A DNA stretch of 63,867 nucleotides, the filler included, from an uncultured Methanosarcinales archaeon (GTDB taxonomy: Archaea; Nanobdellota; Nanobdellia; Woesearchaeales; CAYXTQ01): NCBI GenBank assembly GCA_964608065.1. It is 8 parts of 8 records of this genome, joined end to end, with 100 filler letters (N's around TTAATTAATTAA, not from the genome) between each part and the next. Parts side by side here need not be neighbours in the genome. Positions count along the whole stretch, not along the records: positions 43,773 to 52,107 come from CAZSMA010000065.1; 7 more parts are not named here. One strand, written 5' to 3'. Below are positions 8,854-60,585 of the stretch, in pieces. How positions within the stretch are numbered: the stretch's first letter is position 1; every line of letters starts with the position of its first letter. The position numbers and the translations under genes are program-made. A model generated the notes under the pieces. That model was given only the letters and a program-made list of their open reading frames with translations, was not told where the DNA came from and searched no databases.

Positions 8854-8953
8854 NNNNNNNNNNNNNNNNNNNNNNNNNNNNNNNNNNNNNNNNNNNNTTA
8901 ATTAATTAANNNNNNNNNNNNNNNNNNNNNNNNNNNNNNNNNNNNNNNNNNNN
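8854..8953. other. Artificial contig spacer (also 17688-17787, 26471-26570, 35109-35208, 43673-43772, 52108-52207, 60438-60537)
   Basis: 100-bp N-TTAATTAATTAA-N six-frame-stop linker; contigs decrease in length. Confidence 0.99.
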
Positions 8954-17531: not shown

Positions 17532-17934
17532 CTTAATTAAGGCAAATTATACCTACTATTTAAACCTTTCGTTATTGTAGTTACTAGTAAAAAGTAACTA
17601 AATATTTTTTGAGAATAAAGGAAATAAAAAAAAAAAAAAAAAAAATTTTTTTTTTTTTTTTAAAACGGGGATATAATAATTTAAAATNNNNNNNNNNNNN
17701 NNNNNNNNNNNNNNNNNNNNNNNNNNNNNNNTTAATTAATTAANNNNNNNNNNNNNNNNNNNNNNNNNNNNNNNNNNNNNNNNNNNNATCGTTTGGAAAT
17801 TGAAAATTTCCAAAAGTTTTTATAGTTCATTAAATTAATTTGTATAAAATTGAAAATAAAATTTTTGTAAAACAGAATTCAATAAAAAAAAAAAATCGAT
17901 ATCAAAATTGATTAAAATTAAATACTGATCCAAA

Positions 17935-26470: not shown

Positions 26471-26668
26471 NNNNNNNNNNNNNNNNNNNNNNNNNNNNNN
26501 NNNNNNNNNNNNNNTTAATTAATTAANNNNNNNNNNNNNNNNNNNNNNNNNNNNNNNNNNNNNNNNNNNNACATACATAATTAAAAAACACAATAGGATT
26601 TATAGTTTACTTTTGTCGTTAACTATAACTTGCAAACATTTAAATATATCTTTAGTGTAAGAGGATAG

Positions 26669-35047: not shown

Positions 35048-35316
35048 GTGCTTCTTGAACGTGATGAACCATCATCCTCGGATAGTGCGATTTTTAATCC
35101 TTGCTTCANNNNNNNNNNNNNNNNNNNNNNNNNNNNNNNNNNNNNNNNNNNNTTAATTAATTAANNNNNNNNNNNNNNNNNNNNNNNNNNNNNNNNNNNN
35201 NNNNNNNNTATAGTAGTAAATTTAAGTAAATTAAAAAAAATTTTAAAAAAAATTTAAAAAAAAAAAAAAAAAGATTTATATATAAGTTATTATATATTGA
35301 CTATAGATGATATATA

Positions 35317-43622: not shown

Positions 43623-43772
43623 TTTAACAAACGCGTTTAGTGTTCTCTTTGATGTATATGTCAATAAAAGTCNNNNNNNNNNNNNNNNNNNNNNNNNNNN
43701 NNNNNNNNNNNNNNNNTTAATTAATTAANNNNNNNNNNNNNNNNNNNNNNNNNNNNNNNNNNNNNNNNNNNN

Positions 43773-43830
43773 CTGTCAAATTTATTAGAAATAGATTACA
43801 ACATACTCCACATTCAAGACATTTATTCAC
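43773..43830 (-). CDS. N-terminus of a CxxCxxCC (YkgJ-like) protein, truncated by contig end
   Basis: GTG start: MNKCLECGVCCNLFLINLT. Confidence 0.6.
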
Positions 43831-43842
43831 CTTTTCCCCCCA

Positions 43843-44109
43843 CTATCTTTTATTCAAACCGCTTTTCTTCTTGCCCCAATTCCACTTCCATTCTCCATCT
43901 GTTTTTCTTTTTGAGATTACAGTTACTGCAACAATACCTGCAAATAAATATAATAAGTATTTACCTGTATTCCCCTCTTCAGTTATTAACATACTTAGAG
44001 AAAGTATGTATAATATAAAAACAACTACTACTGCCCACCCTTCCCATGTGGTTGGAGTAGCACCATATCCAAAACCTCTTGGTTTGAACCAATATTTGTT
44101 AGATTTCAT
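43843..44109 (-). CDS. Small 2-TM membrane protein
   Basis: WFKPRGFGYGATPTTWEGW...WKWNWG. Confidence 0.8.
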   Translation of the reverse strand: MKSNKYWFKPRGFGYGATPTTWEGWAVVVVFILYILSLSMLITEEGNTGKYLLYLFAGIVAVTVISKRKTDGEWKWNWGKKKSGLNKR

Positions 44110-44116
44110 TCTTTCA

Positions 44117-45110
44117 TTACCTCCAACTTACATTAACATCATCAGTTCTTTCATAAGGTCTGATAGAACTATCTTTTGTTCTGATACCTGATTTATACTC
44201 CAACAAACCAAGATAAGCTATCATTGCTGCATTGTCTACTAAGAATTCATTTGGAGGAATAAAACACTTAAAACCATTATCTTTACACATTCTTTTAGCC
44301 ATTTCCTGAAAGCGTAAATTACAAGCAACACCTCCGCCTAAAATCAATTCTTTTTTATCACAATGATGCAAAGCTCTTTCTGCAACTTCTAAAAGCATTG
44401 CAAAAGCTGTTTCCTGCATTGAATATGCTAAATCTTCTTTTTTAAACTTTTTATCATATTTCTTTTTCAAATTAGTTAATAAACCACCAAAACTAACATC
44501 CATTCCTTTAACAACATAAGGTAATTCAATAAACTTTGAAGATTTTAAACTCAATGAATAAAGTTTAGGACCTCCTGGAAAACCTAAACCTAAATATCTA
44601 GCAAAAGCATCTAAGAAATTACCAACTCCAATATCTAATGTTTCTCCAAATATTCTATATTTTCCAGCTTCATAAGCAATAACTTGTGTGTTAGCACCTG
44701 AAGCATATAATAAAACAGGATCTTTTACAGGAAACAGCATATTACCTATTTCAAGGTGTGCAATACAATGATTAACACCTATTAAAGGTTTATTTAACAT
44801 CAAAGCTAAAGTTCTGGCAAAAAATGCTCCTATCCTTAAACAATGACCTATTCCGGGACCTTGTGAAAATGAAATTAAATCTACATCTTTTAATTTTAAT
44901 TTAGATTTATCTAATGCTTGTTTCAAAACCTTATCACAAACCTCAACATGATGCTCAGCTGCTTTAGCTGGGATTATTCCACCTGATGAAGTGATATAAC
45001 TATCTTTAACATTAGAAATTACTTTCTTATCTTTTACAATACCAACACCAAAAGTATCTCTGCCTTTAGAGTGCAGTACTTTCAATGCCGAGACATATTA
45101 AAGGTTTCAT
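44117..45110 (-). CDS. kae1: Kae1 t6A synthase (KEOPS), two exons: 45110-45071 and 45057-44117 (326 aa spliced)
   Basis: Exon 1 MKPLICLGIESTA, exon 2 (H)TFGVGIV; GPG, HCIAH, SGANT, GETLD, DNAAMIA. Confidence 0.9.
45058..45070 (-). other. 13-nt BHB-type mRNA intron in kae1 (predicted)
   Basis: Sense strand AAAGTA CTGC AC^T CTAAAG GCAG AG^A TACTTT. Confidence 0.85.
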
Positions 45111-46333
45111 CTTTCTAATTTCTTAGCCCTCTTATGTATATTTTTCGTTCTTATAGCAATATTTTCTTCATTTAATATTTTTTTTACTATTTCTGTTCCT
45201 TTTAGGCCATTCTTTATATTTTTTTCCACTTTTTCTATTAACCAAGGAGGCCATTTTCCAGATATTTTCTTAGCTTTATATAGTTTTTCCATTTGTTCAT
45301 ATCTATAGCTCTTGACAGTAGGATTAAATGTTGGTAGATTATATGCATCCTTAATACTAATCATTAAAGTCCATAATTTTGTTCTAGTAATAAGCCAAGG
45401 TTTAGCACTAATATTTAATGACTTAAGAATATTTTTTATAAGTCCTGTATTTGGTTCTGTTATGATACCAACTTTTTGACTACTAAAATCCACAAAACCA
45501 TCTGAATCTGCTAAGCCTTGAAGGAAAAAAATCTTAAACTCTCTTGGAGATTTTAAAATCCAATCTGCCCTAATCGGATTATATGTTGTTAATTCATTAT
45601 TCTTTAATCCAAGACAAACATTAAAAATCCATTGAATCAAAAGAGATGATTGAGAGATCCACGTGTAAAAAGGATAAACATTTCTTTTTCCTGCTGGGCA
45701 ATCTTTGCATCTGTTCATACGCATACTTAAGTAATTAGTGCATAGTTTTACAAATTCCCCTAACCTTTCATTTGTTTTATATCCTTTTGAAAGCCTAAGA
45801 TGGATTCTTCTTGTAACTCTTTGTTTTCTTTTTATTCCTGTTTTACTTGAATCTCCTATTAAAATACCTAATAGATAAGCAAAACATAGTTCTTTTTTAG
45901 TTTTTATTTGTTTTCCTTGTAATACCTTTAATTGTTTTATAACAGAATAAATATCATTATATGATTCTATTTTTTCAGGTACTTGAATCCATGGCTCAAT
46001 AAGTAGTCCTCCTCTAGTTGAATTTATAGAAAGCCACTTTAGATTGTTTTTTGGTTTTCCTAAGTTTAAATAATGGTCTAAAATTCTTATGATAAAGGGT
46101 TTGTTTCCTTCATATATCCAATGATCAATTTTTCTTTTTGAGATTTTTGTTAATTTTGCTATTTGTGAAGCAGAAAAACCCCGTGTCCTATGTAAAATTA
46201 CTTTTGAATATTCTTTGAAATCTTTTATATCTTTTTTATTAATAAATATTCCATAGAAATATTTTATGAAGTTTATACCCGGATGTCTTTTGAAATATTT
46301 AATTAAATTTTTATTAATTTTCATTTGAATCAT
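45107..46333 (-). mobile_element. Free-standing LAGLIDADG homing endonuclease gene inserted in the kae1 5' end
   Basis: AYLLGILIGDSS and FLQGLADSDG; N-terminal HTH; stop overlaps new kae1 start (ATGA). Confidence 0.88.
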
Positions 46334-46462
46334 CAATTTTTCTTAGGTTGAAACTATGTAAATGCTTTTCCTTTATATACCTCACGTACACTTGGCCAGT
46401 GGCCAGTGAGGTTAGAAAAAGCATAATTTAATAGTTGAAACAATATTTGAGTGATTCAAATG
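46322..46462 (-). promoter_or_regulatory. ~140-nt imperfect hairpin overlapping the endonuclease start codons
   Basis: Nested arms 46322-46332/46452-46462, 46352-46357/46431-46436, 46362-46369/46417-46424, 46379-46385/46406-46412. Confidence 0.7.
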
Positions 46463-46472
46463 TTATTAAAAT

Positions 46473-46514
46473 TTAATAAGGGTATTTTATTGATTCTATA
46501 CCCAAACAATTCAT
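46473..46514 (-). pseudogene. Orphaned original 5' end of kae1
   Basis: MNCLGIES-IKYPY*; AAAAGCA-TTTAAATA promoter about 27 nt upstream. Confidence 0.85.
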
Positions 46515-46572
46515 TTTATCAAGTAGTAAAAAACCTAAAAGTATTTAAATGCTTTTAAAACACTCAAATACA

Positions 46573-47613
46573 ATGAAGACTGTATTAGCTATAGGAGATA
46601 TGTGTGATTGGGACTCCTTCAAGAAGTTTTACAGACAGAGAAGATTATTCAGCAAACACGGATTTAAGTTTAAAAATGTTGAATATAAATCAATTTTAAG
46701 AGATGAATTTCCTTCTATAAAGACTGAAAAAATCATAATTTTCTTCTTTTTTCCATTCAACTACTGGAATAAAAAAATAGAAACAAAGCATTACAAAGGA
46801 GTTTATGGAAACAGGTATTTTTATATAAAGTTCAGAAAATTCTGGAATGAAATAACAAAAAAGCTTAATGACCATTATCATGACAAGCAGATATTTTATG
46901 TCAATCATCCGCAGCAGATAACTTTAGACAGAGACAAATATGTTACAAGCAAAATATTAGAAAAAAACAATATTTTAGTTCCAAAATATTACCGAACAAG
47001 AGACTTAAAAAAGATATTAAGATTTCTTGATGAAGGAAGGAAACTGTTCATAAAAGTAAGATATGGCTCTATGGGCAAGGGAATAACATATCTAGAGAAA
47101 AAATACTGGTTTACTAATTTTAGATTCAAGAATAACAAAATAATAAGCAAAAAATCTGATTATGGATGGAAATTCAGGAATAAGACAGGCAATAAAAAAT
47201 TCTTAAAAGCTTTGTTAAAAGAAGATATTATAATTGAGGAAGCAATCAATCCTTTATTATTAAAAGGAAGAAAATTTGATCTAAGGATGTATGTTTGTTT
47301 TGGAAAAGTTGTATATATATACCCAAGAAGCAATGATCCTATACAGCCAACAACAAATATTTCACAAGGAGCAATAGGAGAAGGAAAAGAGTTTTTAGAA
47401 AGCATTCCACCTAAAGTATTGAGAGATTCTATAAAATATGCTATAAGATCTACTAAAGCTATGAAACTGAATTTTGCAGGTGTCGATATAATGCCAAACG
47501 GCAAAGGAGTTACTGTCATAGAAGTCAATACATTTCCTGGATTTCCAAAAACAAGGAAATTCAATCTTTCTAAATACATAATAAAGGAGATAACGCAAGA
47601 AAAATGGATATAA
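46573..47613 (+). CDS. ATP-grasp ligase (RimK/YheC-like)
   Basis: DKY, FIKVRYGSMGKGI, KFDLR, TTNISQG, AGVDI, IEVNTFPG. Confidence 0.85.
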   Translation: MKTVLAIGDMCDWDSFKKFYRQRRLFSKHGFKFKNVEYKSILRDEFPSIKTEKIIIFFFFPFNYWNKKIETKHYKGVYGNRYFYIKFRKFWNEITKKLNDHYHDKQIFYVNHPQQITLDRDKYVTSKILEKNNILVPKYYRTRDLKKILRFLDEGRKLFIKVRYGSMGKGITYLEKKYWFTNFRFKNNKIISKKSDYGWKFRNKTGNKKFLKALLKEDIIIEEAINPLLLKGRKFDLRMYVCFGKVVYIYPRSNDPIQPTTNISQGAIGEGKEFLESIPPKVLRDSIKYAIRSTKAMKLNFAGVDIMPNGKGVTVIEVNTFPGFPKTRKFNLSKYIIKEITQEKWI

Positions 47614-48065
47614 GAAGAGCAACAATAGATGATTTTGAGAAAGTTTTACCAATCAAGTTAGAATCTAAAGAAGAAGAAAGAAAGTATAATCCTGGATTAG
47701 AGCCTATAAAGAAAGTGATTGAAAACTACAAAGGATATCTTAGGAATGATATTGAAAGTGAATGGAGGGCTGTTTTTATAGCAGAGGATAAAGAAGTCAT
47801 TGGAATCATAGTTGCTAAAGTTTACAGAACATTAATAGTTGCTGGCTATGAAAGAAGAGGTTATTTAACTAATCTTTATGTTAAACCAAAGTTCAGGAGA
47901 AAAGGCATAGGTAAAGAATTATTTAACACAGCAGTAGCTTGGTTAAAGAAAAAGAAAGCAAAAGGAGTTACTTTAGAGATACACAGTGCAAACAAAGACA
48001 AGGTTAATTTCTATCATAAATTTGGATTTAAAGACTTTACAATAAAGATGGTTAAGAAGATTTAG
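47604..48065 (+). CDS. GNAT acetyltransferase
   Basis: LYVKPKFRRKGIG, FYHKFGF. Confidence 0.92.
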   Translation: MDIRRATIDDFEKVLPIKLESKEEERKYNPGLEPIKKVIENYKGYLRNDIESEWRAVFIAEDKEVIGIIVAKVYRTLIVAGYERRGYLTNLYVKPKFRRKGIGKELFNTAVAWLKKKKAKGVTLEIHSANKDKVNFYHKFGFKDFTIKMVKKI

Positions 48066-49086
48066 TTTCTGGAAATACTAAGTCTATTAAAGAAGCTGCT
48101 GCGTTTCTTGGCTTTCCTATATAAGGATAATGGTGTAATGCAATTCCTGGCATGTTGTTGACTTCAATAATTTTATAATTTTTGATTATATCTTTTGTAA
48201 TGTCTTTTGTGATTATGTCAATTCCTGCATATGTAAGTCCTGGAATTGCTTCCAAAACCTTCATTGCTATCAACTTAGCAGAAGGGTGCGCATCTTCAGT
48301 AAAAGCGATACTGTCTCCTCCTGAACACATATTTGAATTGTGTCTTAGAAATATTCTCTCATTATTTTTTGGAATTGACTCTAATGTGAGTTTTTGTTTT
48401 TTTAGATTAGTTATTGTATCTTCATCAATCTTGATTTTATACCATGGATTTAAACTAAGTTTATCTCCTTTGTCTTTACGGTCTATATTTTTTTTTATTA
48501 TTAATTCATTTATGTTTGTTTTTCCATCTCCGAGAACAGATGCTGGTCTTCTCATTGTTACAGCACAATATCCATCTTTTGTTATAAAAACACGGTATTC
48601 GTTTCCTTCGTAATATCTCTCAACAATTATCCTCTTGTATTTTTTTCCAAGATTGCATGCTACATCTTTTATGTCCCTTTTCCATATCTTGCAATGGACT
48701 CCATTTCCAAAATCTGTGTTATCTGGTTTTAACACTATTTTACTATCAGTTGCTTTTGCATAATTATTTATTGCATCAATCTTAGATGATTCAAAAATTT
48801 TACCTTCTGGAACAGATAACCCCCTTTTTTTTAGGAATAGTTTTGTATCTGTTTTGCTGCACAGTATCTTCTTTGTGATTGCTGGCAAACTTGTGTTATC
48901 AGCACCATAAAAAAGTGCGATTTTATCTTTATATTTAAGCTGCACATATTTACTTAAAAGTACATTTGCTTTTATTCCCCTCTTAAGAGCTTCACTTATA
49001 ATAATGCAGGATGTTAGTCCTATACCTCTAAAATCATAATCTTTTCTATCTAGAAAATTGATTTTATAATTATTGTGTTTTTCCAT
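48052..49086 (-). CDS. ATP-grasp ligase like the GshF/cyanophycin synthetase ATP-grasp domain
   Basis: VLKP..GNGV, EYRV, RRPASVLGDG, SNMCSGGDS, IIEVNNMPG. Confidence 0.88.
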   Translation of the reverse strand: MEKHNNYKINFLDRKDYDFRGIGLTSCIIISEALKRGIKANVLLSKYVQLKYKDKIALFYGADNTSLPAITKKILCSKTDTKLFLKKRGLSVPEGKIFESSKIDAINNYAKATDSKIVLKPDNTDFGNGVHCKIWKRDIKDVACNLGKKYKRIIVERYYEGNEYRVFITKDGYCAVTMRRPASVLGDGKTNINELIIKKNIDRKDKGDKLSLNPWYKIKIDEDTITNLKKQKLTLESIPKNNERIFLRHNSNMCSGGDSIAFTEDAHPSAKLIAMKVLEAIPGLTYAGIDIITKDITKDIIKNYKIIEVNNMPGIALHHYPYIGKPRNAAASLIDLVFPETKSS

Positions 49087-49202
49087 AACAGAGTTAGTCC
49101 TTTATTGTCAGAGATACTCTAAAGGTATTAAAAGTTTTCTGTTTTTTACTACCTCCATTATATAGAAATGTTTTTATATTATGTTTTCTAAATATTTGTA
49201 TT

Positions 49203-49883
49203 ATGGTAGCAAAAGGAGTTCAGGAAAAAAGAAGATTTGTTATTCTTAACAATTATAAAAATGAAAAACATTTTAGACATCTTGAGACTGCTGTGAACGA
49301 ACAGCTTAAGAAAATAAAAGAAGAAAAACCAGACTTTAATTATGAGGTTGTTAAGTATGATAATTATGGTGAAAACAGGGATAAAATAAAAAAAGAAATA
49401 GGTAAAGGAGATACTATAATATCTGGAGGCTCTACTAATGCAGGAGAAAAAATAAAAGGTAATTATGTCAAAGTTGGGGATGAAGTGCATCATCACATAA
49501 GGGATAATCTAAAAGATAACTATTTCTTAGGAATCTGCCATGGTGCTCAGGCAATGGGTGAGGCATATGGTGGTAGGATTACAAGAACAGAGCACAGACA
49601 TATGAAACGTAGAGAGCCAACTAAAATAGAATCAGACCTGGACTTATTTAGAAGTGATGCAAAAAGTAAGTATCATGCTAATCATAGATATTATATAAAA
49701 TCTTCAGATAAAGGTAAACTCAAACCTATTGCTAAGACAGTATCAGAACATACTGGAGAAGAGTTCATTGATGCTTATAAAGTAGGAAATCATTATGGAT
49801 TGCAATTCCATCCAGAAAGGACAAAAAGGGGAGAGGACTTATTAAAGAAGTTCTTATACAAAGCAGTAGGTTATTCAAAGTAA
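49203..49883 (+). CDS. Class I glutamine amidotransferase-like protein
   Basis: ISGG, LGICHGAQ, GLQFHPE. Confidence 0.88.
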   Translation: MVAKGVQEKRRFVILNNYKNEKHFRHLETAVNEQLKKIKEEKPDFNYEVVKYDNYGENRDKIKKEIGKGDTIISGGSTNAGEKIKGNYVKVGDEVHHHIRDNLKDNYFLGICHGAQAMGEAYGGRITRTEHRHMKRREPTKIESDLDLFRSDAKSKYHANHRYYIKSSDKGKLKPIAKTVSEHTGEEFIDAYKVGNHYGLQFHPERTKRGEDLLKKFLYKAVGYSK

Positions 49884-50900
49884 TTTCTCTCTTCCTTTAG
49901 GAAGCTTAAACTGCAACTTACCGTCTTTTGTCATCAGGCCTTGTTTTAAGTCTTCTTTGTTTGCAACTTTAATTACAAATGGCAATATCATTCTGCTCAA
50001 AGAAATAGAAACTACTCTTGGCAAGGCTGCTGGCAGATTATCTATAACATAATGTGTTATGCCTTCCACTTTGTATGTTCCTTCTCCTAAAGACCTTGGC
50101 TTAGAAGTTTCTATAGCACCTTTTTCATCGCAGGAAATATCATTAATTAAGCTTTTTTTTTTTAATAGTTTAAGATCTTTTCTTTTTACAATATGACCAT
50201 AAGATGGATGCCATACAATAGCATTGACTAATATATCAACATCAGGCAGATACTTTTCAATATGTGGTGTTTTATCCTTGTATAGAATTTGTGGCGTTAT
50301 TTTAGCATGTTTTAAAACTTCTTGGCAGCCTTTTGAAACATTACCACAACCCATTATTACAACAGAGGGTTTTTTTTTTAATTTTAATTTTGATAATTCT
50401 TTGTAAACATTTGGCTTTTTAAAACATTTTTGTATTGGAGGAAGTTTTTTGAATCCATTTCCTATCATATCACCATAAATCCTTAATCCTTCGTACATTC
50501 CAACAACTCCTGCTTCAAAACCTAAAGTTACTAATCTTTTTTTTCTTTTGTCTCTGATTTCTTCATAAGCATAACTCTTGACTTTATTCTTTAATAGTTT
50601 TTTTAATAAAGGAATGTCTTGCCCTTTTTCAACATGAAGATAACCCATTATAATCTGATTCTGCTTTATTGTATTCAAAGGGGGTGTTTTAACCCTTACG
50701 ATCATTGGAGAATCATAAACATTTTTTTTTATTTTTGCACCCACTTTAATATAATCTTTATCAGAAAATCCGCTTTTCAGTCCTGCATTATGCTCAACAA
50801 AAACAGTATGACCTATCTTAACTAATTCTTTTACACGAAAAGGAGTTAAAGCTATTCTTTGCTCTCCTATCTTTGTTTCTTTAGGAATACCTATTATCAT
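49875..50900 (-). CDS. Alanine dehydrogenase/PNT-family NAD(P) oxidoreductase
   Basis: IIGIPKE..EQRIALTP, GCGNVSKG, DISCDEKGAIETS. Confidence 0.85.
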   Translation of the reverse strand: MIIGIPKETKIGEQRIALTPFRVKELVKIGHTVFVEHNAGLKSGFSDKDYIKVGAKIKKNVYDSPMIVRVKTPPLNTIKQNQIIMGYLHVEKGQDIPLLKKLLKNKVKSYAYEEIRDKRKKRLVTLGFEAGVVGMYEGLRIYGDMIGNGFKKLPPIQKCFKKPNVYKELSKLKLKKKPSVVIMGCGNVSKGCQEVLKHAKITPQILYKDKTPHIEKYLPDVDILVNAIVWHPSYGHIVKRKDLKLLKKKSLINDISCDEKGAIETSKPRSLGEGTYKVEGITHYVIDNLPAALPRVVSISLSRMILPFVIKVANKEDLKQGLMTKDGKLQFKLPKGREKLL

Positions 50901-51341
50901 TTTAAAATTTTATTCATAAGAATTATTTAAATTTGTTCATTAAATAAAATTTAATAAAAAAAAAAAAAATGAAAACCACGCATACACTTGCACTAGATTT
51001 AAGAACTGTTGGAAACTGCGTGCTGAACATCTCGTTGCCTTGATGCTTACACACCAGTCCCATCAAACTCATATTTTATGAGTGTTCTAAATGTGTCTAT
51101 TTTCGAGGTGGGCTTCGTGCTTAGATGCTTTCAGCACTTATCCCTATAAAGCGTAGCTGCCCTGCGTACCTTGTAAGATAACAGGTAGACCAGTGGCTTC
51201 GAAAGCCAGTTCCTCTCGTACTATGGCTTCCTTCCCCTCAGACACAAACATTTCCAGTAGATATCAAACAAACTGCCTCACAGCGTTCTGAACCCAGCTC
51301 ACGATCCCTTTTAATTGGTGAACACCCACACCCTTGGGCGC

Positions 51342-51389
51342 CTACAGTTCGAAGAAATGTAGGTTCCGAAAAACCTAATTTTTCGATAT
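51342..51389 (-). other. 48-nt relaxed-BHB intron in the 23S helix 91 loop
   Basis: GGGCGT GCAG AA^A ... CTGT AG^G CGCCC; splicing restores GGGCGUGCAGAAGCGCCC. Confidence 0.8.
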
Positions 51390-51446
51390 TTCTGCACGCC
51401 CAGGATAGGAAGAGCCGACATCGATGTAGCAAGCCGCGCCGTCGAT

Positions 51447-51533
51447 ATGCTCTAGAACGTTAAAGCTATTGCTATGAGAAATGAAGACCTATAAATGACC
51501 TCAAATCACAGACTAGCGGCCTTAACGCTCAAA
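51447..51533 (-). other. 87-nt BHB intron in 23S helix 89
   Basis: GA GCTC AT^T TTGAGCGTTAAGG...CTTTAACGTTCTA GAGC AT^A TC; splicing restores GAGAGCUCAUAUCGACGG. Confidence 0.88.
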
Positions 51534-52207
51534 ATGAGCTCTCAGGCGCGACAACTCTGTTATCCCCGGAGTAACTTTTTGGTCATCTCTAACCTCGATC
51601 AATGAGGTATAAAGGTTCGCTAGGCCAAACTTTCGTTTTTGGATTTCGTCTTGTTAAAAATCCAATTAGGCTGGCTTTTGCCCTTGCGCTCTACAGCCGA
51701 TATCTGACCGGCTTGAGCCAACCTTTGGACCCTGCTGATACATTTTCAGCAGGGTGCCACCCCAGCCAAACTATCCACCTACAGGTGTCCTTTTTGCAAA
51801 GTAAGCAACGTAAATTTTGTAGAGTGGTGTTACATCGTTGTCTACACTCAAACTTGCGTCTAAGCTTTAGCGACTCCCACTTACGCTATACAACAAAATC
51901 CACATCGCAACCATAGGCTATAGTAAAGTTTCACGGGGTCTTCGCTTCCCACTGGAAATCTCTGGCCTTTGCACCAGAATAGAGTATTCAGAGGATTCTA
52001 GTTGGGGACAGTGATGATCTCGTTACGTCATTCATGCAAGCCGTCATTCAAACGGCAAGGTATTACGCTACCTTAAGAGAGTTATAGTTACCCCCGCCGT
52101 TTACCAGNNNNNNNNNNNNNNNNNNNNNNNNNNNNNNNNNNNNNNNNNNNNTTAATTAATTAANNNNNNNNNNNNNNNNNNNNNNNNNNNNNNNNNNNNN
52201 NNNNNNN

Positions 52208-60437: not shown

Positions 60438-60585
60438 NNNNNNNNNNNNNNNNNNNNNNNNNNNNNNNNNNNNNNNNNNNNTTAATTAATTAANNNNNNN
60501 NNNNNNNNNNNNNNNNNNNNNNNNNNNNNNNNNNNNNCTAAAGAAGGAAGCAGGTTTGTAAACCATAATTTTTTTTTTTTATTTT

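Follow-up and report, generated by a model that had tools for sequence, protein, structure and literature searches.

A probable tRNA-type mini-intron in the kae1 gene of a DPANN archaeon and its pairing with a LAGLIDADG-type gene

Archaeal rRNA introns encode LAGLIDADG endonucleases, for example I-DmoI in the 23S rRNA of Desulfurococcus mobilis, and in the collaborative homing of phages an intron has been proposed to interrupt the target of a nuclease, thereby shielding its carrier. Examples of the latter are F-CphI, encoded beside the intron-containing psbA gene of cyanophage S-PM2, and T4 mobE with the I-TevIII intron (PMC6083498, PMC2790892). As to messenger RNA, the cbf5 pre-mRNA of Crenarchaeota carries a bulge-helix-bulge (BHB) intron (Watanabe, 2002; Yokobori, 2009, PMC2738675). 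According to a 2020 paper, cbf5 was the one archaeal protein-coding gene in which a BHB intron had been reported, and the same paper places a further BHB intron in the 5′ UTR of the Haloferax volcanii HVO_1309 mRNA (PMC7714728). In eukaryotes, unconventional mRNA splicing is represented by HAC1/XBP1 (PMC4090602).

The window analyzed here, the whole stretch of 63,867 nucleotides, contains on its minus strand the single kae1 copy of a small groundwater archaeon (genome G000). From the ATG at 45110, kae1 reads MKPLICLGIESTAL and then TAA, and the body of Kae1 (TFGVGIV...), a protein whose role is t6A modification, continues in the +1 frame to a stop at 44117. Deletion of the 13 nt at 45058-45070 joins GCA-C to AT-ACT, encoding Ala-His-Thr, and brings back GIESTAHTFG, a motif that is unbroken in 28 intronless relatives. 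The earlier note had claimed a 13-nt insert splitting kae1, and both its position and the outcome of its removal proved to be exactly as described. Exon 1 (45071..45110, minus strand) is composed of the ATG, MKPLICLGIESTA and the first base (C) of the His codon; the predicted mini-intron UCUAAAGGCAGAG (45058..45070, minus strand) contains an in-frame UAA and would be cut after the second base of each bulge; and exon 2 (44117..45057, minus strand) supplies the last two bases of the His codon, followed by TFGVGIV... and the remainder of 312 codons after His up to the stop. No defect is apparent in exon 2, which shares 82% identity with the intronless orthologue in G001, a genome of the same genus. 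The ORF at 44117-45085 matches PF00814 (TsaD) with an E value of 1.1e-80 over model positions 2-264 of 264, and the N-terminal nucleotide-binding motif of Kae1/TsaD is complete only once the 13 nt are removed. The TTG at 45085, suspected in the earlier note of being a miscalled start, is indeed a mechanical ORF start without the invariant motif. A second intact kae1, which the earlier note named as grounds for refutation, was not found in G000, which is 96.8% complete. Nine runs, all of DNA, are listed as containing the stretch, and contigs of four runs were compared with it: the contig of run X1, which is possibly the source sample, spans 45035-45519 with zero gaps or differences, but it extends just 23 nt past the insert, and the contigs of the three other runs (X2-X4) do not reach the insert, that of X3, the sole run from another study, ending at 45084.

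The 51 nt at the junction (45040-45090) fold with a minimum free energy of -18.2 kcal/mol (z -3.29; 3 of 200 shuffles were as good) into a structure that includes a CUGC/GCAG helix and an AGA bulge. The outer helix, drawn previously as the 6-bp AAAGUA/UACUUU, actually comprises 14 bp including G-U pairs; its 5′ strand of 14 nt lies in exon 1 (45077..45090, minus strand) and its 3′ strand in exon 2 (45043..45056, minus strand), the assignment resting on the fold, on pairing (92.3% of cells paired over 14 sequences) and on the contrast with intronless alleles. The central 4-bp helix is formed by CUGC (45073..45076, minus strand), in which U occupies the wobble position of the Thr codon, and GCAG within the intron (45060..45063, minus strand). 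The 3′ three-base bulge AGA (45057..45059, minus strand), with the predicted cut AG|A, is seen when 16 of the 17 sequences are folded to minimum energy. The nominal 5′ bulge ACU (45070..45072, minus strand; predicted cut AC|U) lies thermodynamically within a 9-nt loop, and the C-UAAA-G inner hairpin of the earlier drawing is likewise nominal: the minimum-energy fold of G000 pairs CU with AG and leaves a 1-nt bulge, and a fold forced to two 3-nt bulges costs +1.2 kcal/mol, with the 5′ cut site in a 9-nt loop. Sixteen of the 17 minimum-energy folds combine the outer helix and the 3′ bulge with the 4-bp helix, and the strict two-bulge fold, with a 5′ bulge and an inner helix, only in two (L042 and L055). 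The predicted fold of G000 and most of its relatives, in which the inner helix is absent, is a relaxed bulge-helix-loop.

The covarying 4-bp helix foreseen among relatives was found. All 14 aligned sequences pair throughout this helix (100%), and its second pair is U-A in 8, A-U in 3 and C-G in 3, counts to be read with the kinship of these sequences in mind, since as few as two or three events might lie behind the three pair types. Across the entire structure the paired share of cells is 94.0%, and it drops to 31-45% once the 3′ partner is displaced by 1-3 columns; changes affecting both partners are found in 12 cells, compared with 3.0 in shuffles, and none of 500 shuffles matched the observed covariation score. 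For the four outer pairs beside the junction, pairing holds in 100, 93, 100 and 93% of the alleles that carry an intron and in 52, 24, 45 and 21% of 29 intronless alleles; synonymous exon sites are fixed in a way that keeps the outer helix.

Variable inserts at this His codon in related kae1 genes, another expectation of the earlier note, do occur. The same codon is interrupted in 16 of the 17 loci that were found via the upstream gene and reach downstream (the window together with L040-L052, L055 and L056), and in four further genomes (G072, G095, G102 and G275), giving 20 intron loci. The inserts are 12, 13, 14, 15, 16, 17, 18 or 20 nt long, and the lengths of the 15 distinct introns fall into all three classes modulo 3 (0 in six, 1 in five and 2 in four). 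All 15 contain an in-frame stop, compared with 4.5 expected from shuffles, and the predicted cuts give Ala-His-Thr in all 20 loci. The identical 13 nt occur in G000, G002 and G072, though the Kae1 proteins of these genomes are only 66-69% identical; the 17 other loci carry homologous inserts of 12-20 nt. G002 and G072 also have in common a GVAIMDDQ-KVY sequence at the start of exon 2. Exon 1 is open and conserved in every interrupted locus; its peptides were compared across 16 loci, and in G002 the same LGIESTA peptide precedes the break. The interruption is seen in independent assemblies, among them a single-cell genome and 13 of 15 metagenome contigs. The pattern search requires GTAC...ATAC, and introns with other flanks would escape it; three of its nine matches (G383, G173 and G237) were dropped, not being kae1.

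The enzymes of tRNA splicing are encoded in G000, where tRNA introns are also predicted by Aragorn. The RtcB ligase matches PF01139 at 519.6 bits, and the only EndA, a 188-aa ORF at L059:1222-1788 (PF01974 at 94 bits), is of the short single-subunit, alpha4-like form. Enzymes of the alpha4 type were long believed to require a strict BHB motif, which tells against splicing of the relaxed fold in G000. It has been argued in a 2018 paper that the presence of an extra loop gives DPANN alpha4 enzymes a broader specificity (PMC5829648). In the model proposed here, the exons of the kae1 transcript pair with each other in a long helix, the Thr-Ala codons form a 4-bp helix with the 3′ end of the intron, and a 3-nt bulge is left; EndA would then cleave two symmetric sites, and RtcB would ligate the exons, completing the composite His codon as C|AU and with it the invariant motif GIESTAHTFG. 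Because the intron contains an in-frame stop, unspliced mRNA would give only a 14-residue peptide. The sequence, its conservation and covariation and the presence of both enzymes are matters of observation, from which we infer the cutting and joining. It is very probable that the kae1 pre-mRNA contains, at 45058-45070, a minimal archaeal intron of the tRNA (bulge-helix-bulge/loop) type.

The suggestion that other split core genes with BHB folds might be present led to nothing convincing in G000. A strict scan of the genome gave 371 structural candidates, compared with 354-404 in three offset controls, and there is therefore no genome-wide excess of BHB folds. Thirty-two of its candidates would merge ORFs, and the outer helix exceeds 9 bp in kae1 alone. 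A loose scan (24,127 structural candidates, 557 of them merging ORFs) was unusable, and its filter missed even kae1. Among the 32 ORF-merging candidates of the strict scan, one that was inspected would deprive a helicase of its Walker A motif and is false.

Immediately upstream of kae1 lies a free-standing gene for a protein resembling double-LAGLIDADG homing endonucleases (45107..46336, minus strand; 409 aa, with an N-terminal helix-turn-helix region), the TGA stop of which overlaps the kae1 ATG. The protein model (pLDDT 89.9, pTM 0.87) has a two-fold repeated alpha-beta-beta-alpha-beta-beta-alpha core, and its best full-length Foldseek match is I-DmoI (TM 0.69 on target); I-DmoI chains score TM 0.66-0.70 on target with a probability of 1.00, and structures 2vs8 and 1b24 are among those matched. 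In all, 102 chains are matched at E <= 0.001; among the matches listed, most are homing endonucleases, and WhiA and a maturase also occur. Fourteen homologs retain G161-D162 and D277-S278-D279-G280 without change, and the acidic residues of these two motifs include the putative catalytic ones, as in the LAGLIDADG family. At the default threshold Pfam gave no match for the 409-aa protein; with E up to 1, LAGLIDADG matches fall below the curated cut-off (PF14528, 15-19.5 bits against 22.5), and a profile search of PDB sequences returned no match at E <= 1. Since sequence models fall short, membership in the family rests on fold and motifs. Judging by the model, the product is an I-DmoI-like double-LAGLIDADG protein with putative site-specific cleavage.

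The gene is tightly coupled to the interruption. It adjoins kae1 in all 17 loci that reach downstream, and an intron is present in 16 of these 17, compared with approximately 1% of cases without the gene. The exception, L058, has the gene beside an intronless kae1, the junction of which differs at many synonymous sites; the diverged junction would fit an alternative route to immunity but proves nothing. In the Kae1 tree, a quick version that excludes L043, L044, L055 and L058 (<250 aa) and omits L045 and L050 (duplicates of L041 and L048) as well as the four introns without a nuclease gene, the intron is distributed patchily: parsimony gives five changes, of which at least two are forced by well-supported branches, and kae1 of G000 is sister to an intronless gene with a support of 98. 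The DNA of G000 and G001 is alignable only within kae1 (76.5% identity over 950 nt, beginning just past the intron); their flanks cannot be aligned, so that the limits of an insertion cannot be traced. Among the ORFs listed for five loci, none upstream of the nuclease gene looks like what is left of a former kae1 5′ end. By analogy, we consider on balance that the LAGLIDADG gene and the intron form an archaeal counterpart of collaborative homing. The upstream protein would be a homing endonuclease directed against the kae1 junction in its uninterrupted form, the intron would disrupt the putative nuclease site and protect its host, and the two would spread jointly via gene conversion, after which the intron may persist despite loss of the nuclease gene. 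This link between the upstream ORF (45107-46336) and the intron, which the earlier note did not draw, is the more novel part of the present findings.

Alternatively, the intron may be real while the LAGLIDADG-like protein does not home on kae1, being either a nucleic-acid-binding protein (DNA or RNA) that has been domesticated, as a regulator of the WhiA kind or a maturase-like splicing helper, or the product of a selfish gene that prefers the site upstream of kae1. WhiA and the bI3 maturase among the Foldseek matches, and the extra helix-turn-helix-like regions of the protein, are in keeping with such a role; at 9 of the 16 intron loci the LAGLIDADG frame continues into kae1 exon 1, a hint that the two genes are expressed together, and four intron-bearing genomes in a sample of 401 manage without the gene. 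On the other hand, the invariance of both motif aspartates (D162 and D279) in the 14 homologs would fit an active nuclease, and decayed or truncated copies (L043 with two in-frame stops; L055-L057 without the N-terminus) resemble stages of a homing cycle. Moreover, close homologs of the gene occur in just 2 of the 401 genomes of the order, whereas a protein essential for splicing would be expected wherever the intron occurs. We regard a non-homing role as rather unlikely, albeit the most serious of the alternatives.

Returning to homing, it is tempting to speculate that the 12-20-nt inserts are mobile “immunity patches”: the nuclease would cut the invariant junction of intronless cells, repair would bring in the nuclease gene together with a minimal tRNA-type intron and so abolish the site, and the intron would outlive the nuclease gene. 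This proposal is tentative, and we would place it slightly short of an even chance. If true, it would be the first archaeal counterpart of collaborative homing to be spliced by host enzymes, a living picture of how an endonuclease-bearing archaeal intron is born, and a reason for the presence of tiny introns in the most conserved codons of core DPANN genes. The system is small enough to be examined directly, consisting of a 51-nt RNA and a putative DNA site of roughly 26 bp with one protein each.

Readings in which kae1 contains no spliced intron fare much worse. Translational recoding, by a +1 ribosome shift at CUC-UAA or a hop over the hairpin, can draw on the loose likeness of CUC UAA A to a shift-prone codon followed by a stop and on the stable hairpin at the site. 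However, insert lengths span all three classes modulo 3, six of them being multiples of three with in-frame stops, and no single shift or hop would suit all inserts; a +1 shift would add four residues to a motif that 28 relatives keep unchanged, landing at the nearest GCA codon would put the ribosome in the wrong frame, and the covariation coincides exactly with the 4-bp helix recognized by the splicing enzyme. Recoding is accordingly most improbable. Hardly any better placed is the notion that the insert is tolerated unspliced, with Kae1 initiated internally and lacking its first strand, or else produced as two polypeptides: a TTG-started ORF does exist from 45085, but it lacks LGIESTAH, the nucleotide-binding hairpin retained in every relative, and the clear purifying selection on exon 1 in 20 loci would be pointless unless exon 1 were joined to the body. 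Least credible of all is that kae1 is a pseudogene in decay or that the insert arose during assembly or sequencing, despite the metagenomic origin of the genome and reads that do not offer 31 nt on both sides of the insert, because the single kae1 with an exon 2 otherwise free of defects, the recurrence in independent assemblies with exon 1 open throughout, the length classes, the in-frame stops, the paired helix, the fixed exon sites and the presence of EndA and RtcB together argue that the insert is neither an error nor gene decay.

The kae1 intron is probably a genuine and apparently unpublished case of archaeal mRNA splicing, as read from sequence comparison. A literature search, with subscription journals and closed supplements outside its scope, found no kae1 intron and no pairing of a free-standing endonuclease with a BHB intron. 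The gene would be a second, well-supported protein-coding case in a different superphylum, with introns down to 12 nt, and an essential function, t6A modification, would rest on tRNA-splicing enzymes acting on mRNA. Gene callers will mis-annotate such core genes as truncated or frameshifted, which biases estimates of completeness and pseudogenes in DPANN genomes. The tight pairing with the LAGLIDADG gene also offers a testable model for the spread of archaeal introns and the origin of intron-encoded endonucleases.

In comparison with HAC1/XBP1, the common features, as predicted for kae1, are that protein enzymes cut paired stem-loops, a tRNA-type ligase joins the exons and the reading frame is altered; in the eukaryotic system, by contrast, Ire1 makes the cuts in a regulated stress response and there is no link to a mobile element. 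The HVO_1309 mRNA is, as is predicted for that of kae1, a substrate of the archaeal splicing endonuclease outside the Crenarchaeota, but its intron lies in an untranslated leader where no reading frame is broken, and it is experimentally supported, whereas the kae1 intron is predicted from sequence. As an mRNA intron it resembles that of cbf5: in both cases a tRNA-type intron resides in an essential gene for an RNA-modification protein, is removed (in kae1, as predicted) by EndA and a ligase, and is present in a lineage-dependent manner. The cbf5 intron, however, belongs to a different gene in TACK rather than DPANN archaea and has no reported partner endonuclease gene. The kae1 introns are 12-20 nt long and mostly of the relaxed bulge-helix-loop type, and G000 has a single short EndA, whereas cbf5 splicing is said to have been tied by Yoshinari in 2006 to a hetero-oligomeric EndA. 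The arrangement of a free-standing endonuclease gene adjoining an intron-bearing gene is shared with phage collaborative homing, which differs in that it involves self-splicing group I introns, phage genomes and other nuclease families; the kae1 intron would depend on the enzymes of a cellular archaeal host, and cleavage of its target is putative. Finally, the pairing of a BHB-type intron with a putative single-chain double-LAGLIDADG nuclease of the same fold recalls I-DmoI. There, the nuclease gene is located inside a long intron of an rRNA gene, whereas the nuclease-like gene of the kae1 locus stands free, upstream of the start codon, and the kae1 intron is too small to hold any gene.

The single contig that bears kae1 in the window's own genome (G000; assembly of 1.40 Mb in 131 contigs, 96.8% complete) occupies positions 43773-52107 (G000:C65). 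On the minus strand, the gene reads MKPLICLGIESTAL from the ATG at 45110 and then meets a TAA, and the Kae1 body (TFGVGIV...) resumes in the +1 frame, reaching 44117. A mechanical ORF with a TTG start (44117-45085) matches PF00814 (TsaD/Kae1; E 1.1e-80, model positions 2-264) and lacks the N-terminal LGIESTAH hairpin; an earlier note made from the bare sequence had already remarked that this ORF is missing the GIEST motif. The insert at 45058-45070 is precisely the 13 nt that the note had predicted to be a bulge-helix-bulge (BHB) intron, and its deletion fuses GCA-C to AT-ACT (Ala-His-Thr), the junction proposed there. A second kae1 copy was looked for in G000 and only one kae1 is present; the interruption is neither an artefact nor gene decay. 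Paired N runs lie at 8854-8953, 17688-17787, 26471-26570, 35109-35208, 43673-43772, 52108-52207 and 60438-60537; because the window consists of eight N-joined contigs, ORFs spanning 43673-43772, with their runs of X, are artefacts. Just downstream of kae1, an 88-aa ORF (43843-44109, minus strand) without a Pfam match has a hydrophobic mid-section and may encode a small membrane protein, and a 511-aa ORF on the neighbouring contig (42129-43664, minus strand) carries nucleoside/AMP phosphorylase domains (PF02885, PF00591 and PF07831) and is apparently ordinary.

A kae1 match was found in 39 of 40 relatives of the same order, and the N-terminus was compared at 29 loci, 28 of which are uninterrupted (...STAHT[FL]G). 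The remaining one, in a genome of a different family (G002; Kae1 69% identical to that of G000), carries the same 13 nt at the same position, while the insert is absent from G001, a member of the same genus (Kae1 82% identical). Both interrupted genes are preceded by an ORF of 373-409 aa (45107-46336, minus strand, in the window) whose stop overlaps the kae1 ATG; the two proteins are 58% identical, and the ORF was sought at the G001 locus and is absent. As a query, this upstream protein retrieved 15 metagenome contigs, three of which end within the gene, and four species-genome loci, which carry Nanoarchaeota or Woesearchaeota labels and include one single-cell genome. Wherever the sequence extends downstream (17 loci, the window counted), kae1 follows directly, and in 16 of these loci it is split at the identical His codon, so that the nuclease-like gene and the intron are statistically tied. 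In the exception (L058:193-1500), the upstream gene is more divergent than any other copy (39% identity), and the kae1 behind it (MLCLSCESTAHTFG) has no intron but departs from the common junction sequence at many synonymous positions; target drift, rather than an intron, may confer immunity here.

A junction pattern applied to 401 genomes of the order gave nine matches, and the reversed control pattern gave none. Six are kae1 introns: those of G000 and G002, and four more in G072 (the same 13 nt as in G000), G095 (13 nt), G275 (13 nt) and G102 (12 nt); the remaining three matches fall in unrelated sequence. These four additional genomes are 94-100% complete, and no homologue of the upstream gene was detected in them by single-protein search, nor by a 14-sequence profile in any of five genomes (G001 included). 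The closest relative of each of their Kae1 proteins is intronless. A quick Kae1 tree (39 sequences) requires five parsimony changes for the intron label, at least two of them forced by well-supported branches, and places the window's kae1 as sister to the intronless gene of G001 (support 98). The patchiness on the tree fits lateral spread by gene conversion, as does the occurrence of an identical 13-nt insert in three genomes with Kae1 identities of 66-69%, given that intron interiors otherwise vary freely; repeated intron loss may also account for the distribution. G002 and G072 (Kae1 66% identical; loci L040 and L062) open exon 2 with the same unusual residues (GVAIMDDQ-KVY), and the first ~45 nt of this exon are near-identical DNA directly after the identical intron, possibly a co-conversion tract.

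Inserts at the upstream-gene loci, of 13, 14, 15, 16, 17, 18 and 20 nt, all obey one parsing rule, which sets each boundary after the second base of a bulge, the 5′ bulge for the end of the exon and the 3′ bulge for the end of the intron. Every parsed row, L046 included, shows complete pairing of the central helix (56 of 56 cells in an alignment of 14 sequences). The second pair of this helix, which couples the third base of the Thr codon with an intron base, is U-A in eight sequences, A-U in three and C-G in three, both bases changing together. The outer helix is 92.3% paired, with two-sided changes at three pairs. Pairing falls from 94.0% to 31-45% when the 3′ partner is shifted by 1-3 columns, and none of 500 shuffles equalled the observed covariation score, although the 14 sequences are related and represent few independent events. 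The exon positions next to the junction pair in 100, 93, 100 and 93% of intron alleles versus 52, 24, 45 and 21% of 29 intronless alleles. Intron alleles keep Ser AGU, His CAU and Thr ACU, synonymous choices that build the outer helix, and their 11-13 exon bases closest to the intron are 89-90% identical (intronless, 73-77%). Variable inserts (12-20 nt) at this His codon and a covarying 4-bp helix, which the earlier note had proposed as a check, are present.

The 15 distinct introns (12-20 nt) have lengths of 0 (six), 1 (five) and 2 (four) modulo 3, and each contains a stop in the exon 1 frame; shuffling the variable part predicts 4.5, a contrast overstated by the relatedness of the introns. 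Translational frameshifting or hopping is very unlikely, since neither suits all three length classes. For multiple-of-three inserts that contain stops, read-through would be required, and it would add 4-6 residues to a motif that is otherwise invariant. One rule, removal from the RNA, would explain all cases.

For the 51-nt segment 45040-45090, the minimum folding energy is -18.2 kcal/mol (z -3.29; 3 of 200 shuffles equally stable). The central 4-bp helix CUGC/GCAG and the 3-nt AGA bulge appear in this fold as previously drawn, but the outer exon-exon helix has 14 bp instead of 6 bp, and the supposed inner hairpin amounts to one C-G pair. The minimum-energy fold has a 1-nt bulge and two pairs on its 5′ side; a constraint to two 3-nt bulges raises the energy by 1.2 kcal/mol and places the 5′ cut site within a 9-nt loop. 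With a single inner pair and the 5′ site in a loop, the motif in G000 is better named helix-bulge-helix-loop. Central helix, 3′ bulge and outer helix recur in the minimum-energy folds of 16 of 17 sequences, and a true inner helix only in L042 and L055.

Close homologues of the upstream protein occur in only 2 of the 401 sampled genomes; a further six matches, weak and partial, are to other ORFs, including ones of 879 and 1194 aa. Pfam gave LAGLIDADG_3 and helix-turn-helix, both below threshold, and a search of PDB sequences gave no match. A confident AlphaFold model (14 homologues; pLDDT 89.9, pTM 0.87) matched 102 chains at E <= 0.001 in Foldseek, and the matches listed are mostly LAGLIDADG endonucleases; among them I-DmoI is the best full-length fit (probability 1.00, TM 0.66-0.70 on target), followed by intein nuclease domains, I-SceI, WhiA and the bI3 maturase. 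Two motifs, G161-D162 and D277-S278-D279-G280, do not vary among 14 homologues. At 9 of the 16 intron-bearing loci (L041:2986-4242, L042:30-1283, L047:2072-3766, L051:2453-3715, L055:1080-2030, L043, L045, L048 and L050), the nuclease frame stays open through kae1 exon 1 and terminates within the intron, so the intron also provides its stop in unspliced RNA; splicing would yield an mRNA for a nuclease-Kae1 fusion, unless ribosomes initiate anew at the kae1 ATG. At the remaining intron loci, the upstream gene ends where kae1 starts or slightly before. The copy in L043:438-1706 is broken by two in-frame stops (TAG, TGA), and roughly the first 100 residues (the N-terminal third) are missing in L055:1080-2030, L056 and L057:2480-, copies that look to be in decay.

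G000 encodes one EndA (PF01974, 94 bits; 188-aa ORF), which, being single and short, is of the α4 type, and an RtcB without internal stop (519.6 bits). A 2018 study described, for several DPANN lineages, α4 enzymes that bear an extra loop and linked them to more disrupted tRNA genes (PMC5829648). Aragorn found only 19 tRNA genes in G000, 11 with predicted introns, in a noisy count that includes implausible ones (one of 1370 nt); this suggests heavy disruption, and many tRNA genes are probably disrupted in forms that Aragorn misses.

Strong comparative evidence backs the view that the insert is a tRNA-type mRNA intron, as first predicted from the G000 sequence. EndA would cut the pre-mRNA at AC|U and AG|A, and RtcB would join the exons into an mRNA coding for full Kae1. 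The balance tips slightly towards the upstream protein being a homing endonuclease directed against the uninterrupted junction, whose near-invariant codons make it an ideal target, with the intron splitting the site, shielding its carrier and travelling together with the nuclease gene. Decay of that gene and persistence of the intron would then yield the four orphan introns of G072, G095, G102 and G275. Collaborative homing is known from phages (PMC2790892; PMC6083498).

Full-text literature searching found no kae1 intron and no BHB intron partnered with a free-standing nuclease. According to a 2020 paper, cbf5 is the only mRNA intron reported besides its own 5′-UTR case in Haloferax (PMC7714728), and gain and loss of the cbf5 intron have been described (PMC2738675). 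Comparative sequence evidence supports kae1 as a second protein-coding host of archaeal tRNA-type introns, which here appear to be record-small, to adopt mostly a relaxed loop form and to be linked with a LAGLIDADG gene that is free-standing. The putative kae1 intron would be tRNA-type like those of cbf5 and the Haloferax 5′-UTR, and shares with cbf5 a protein-coding host.
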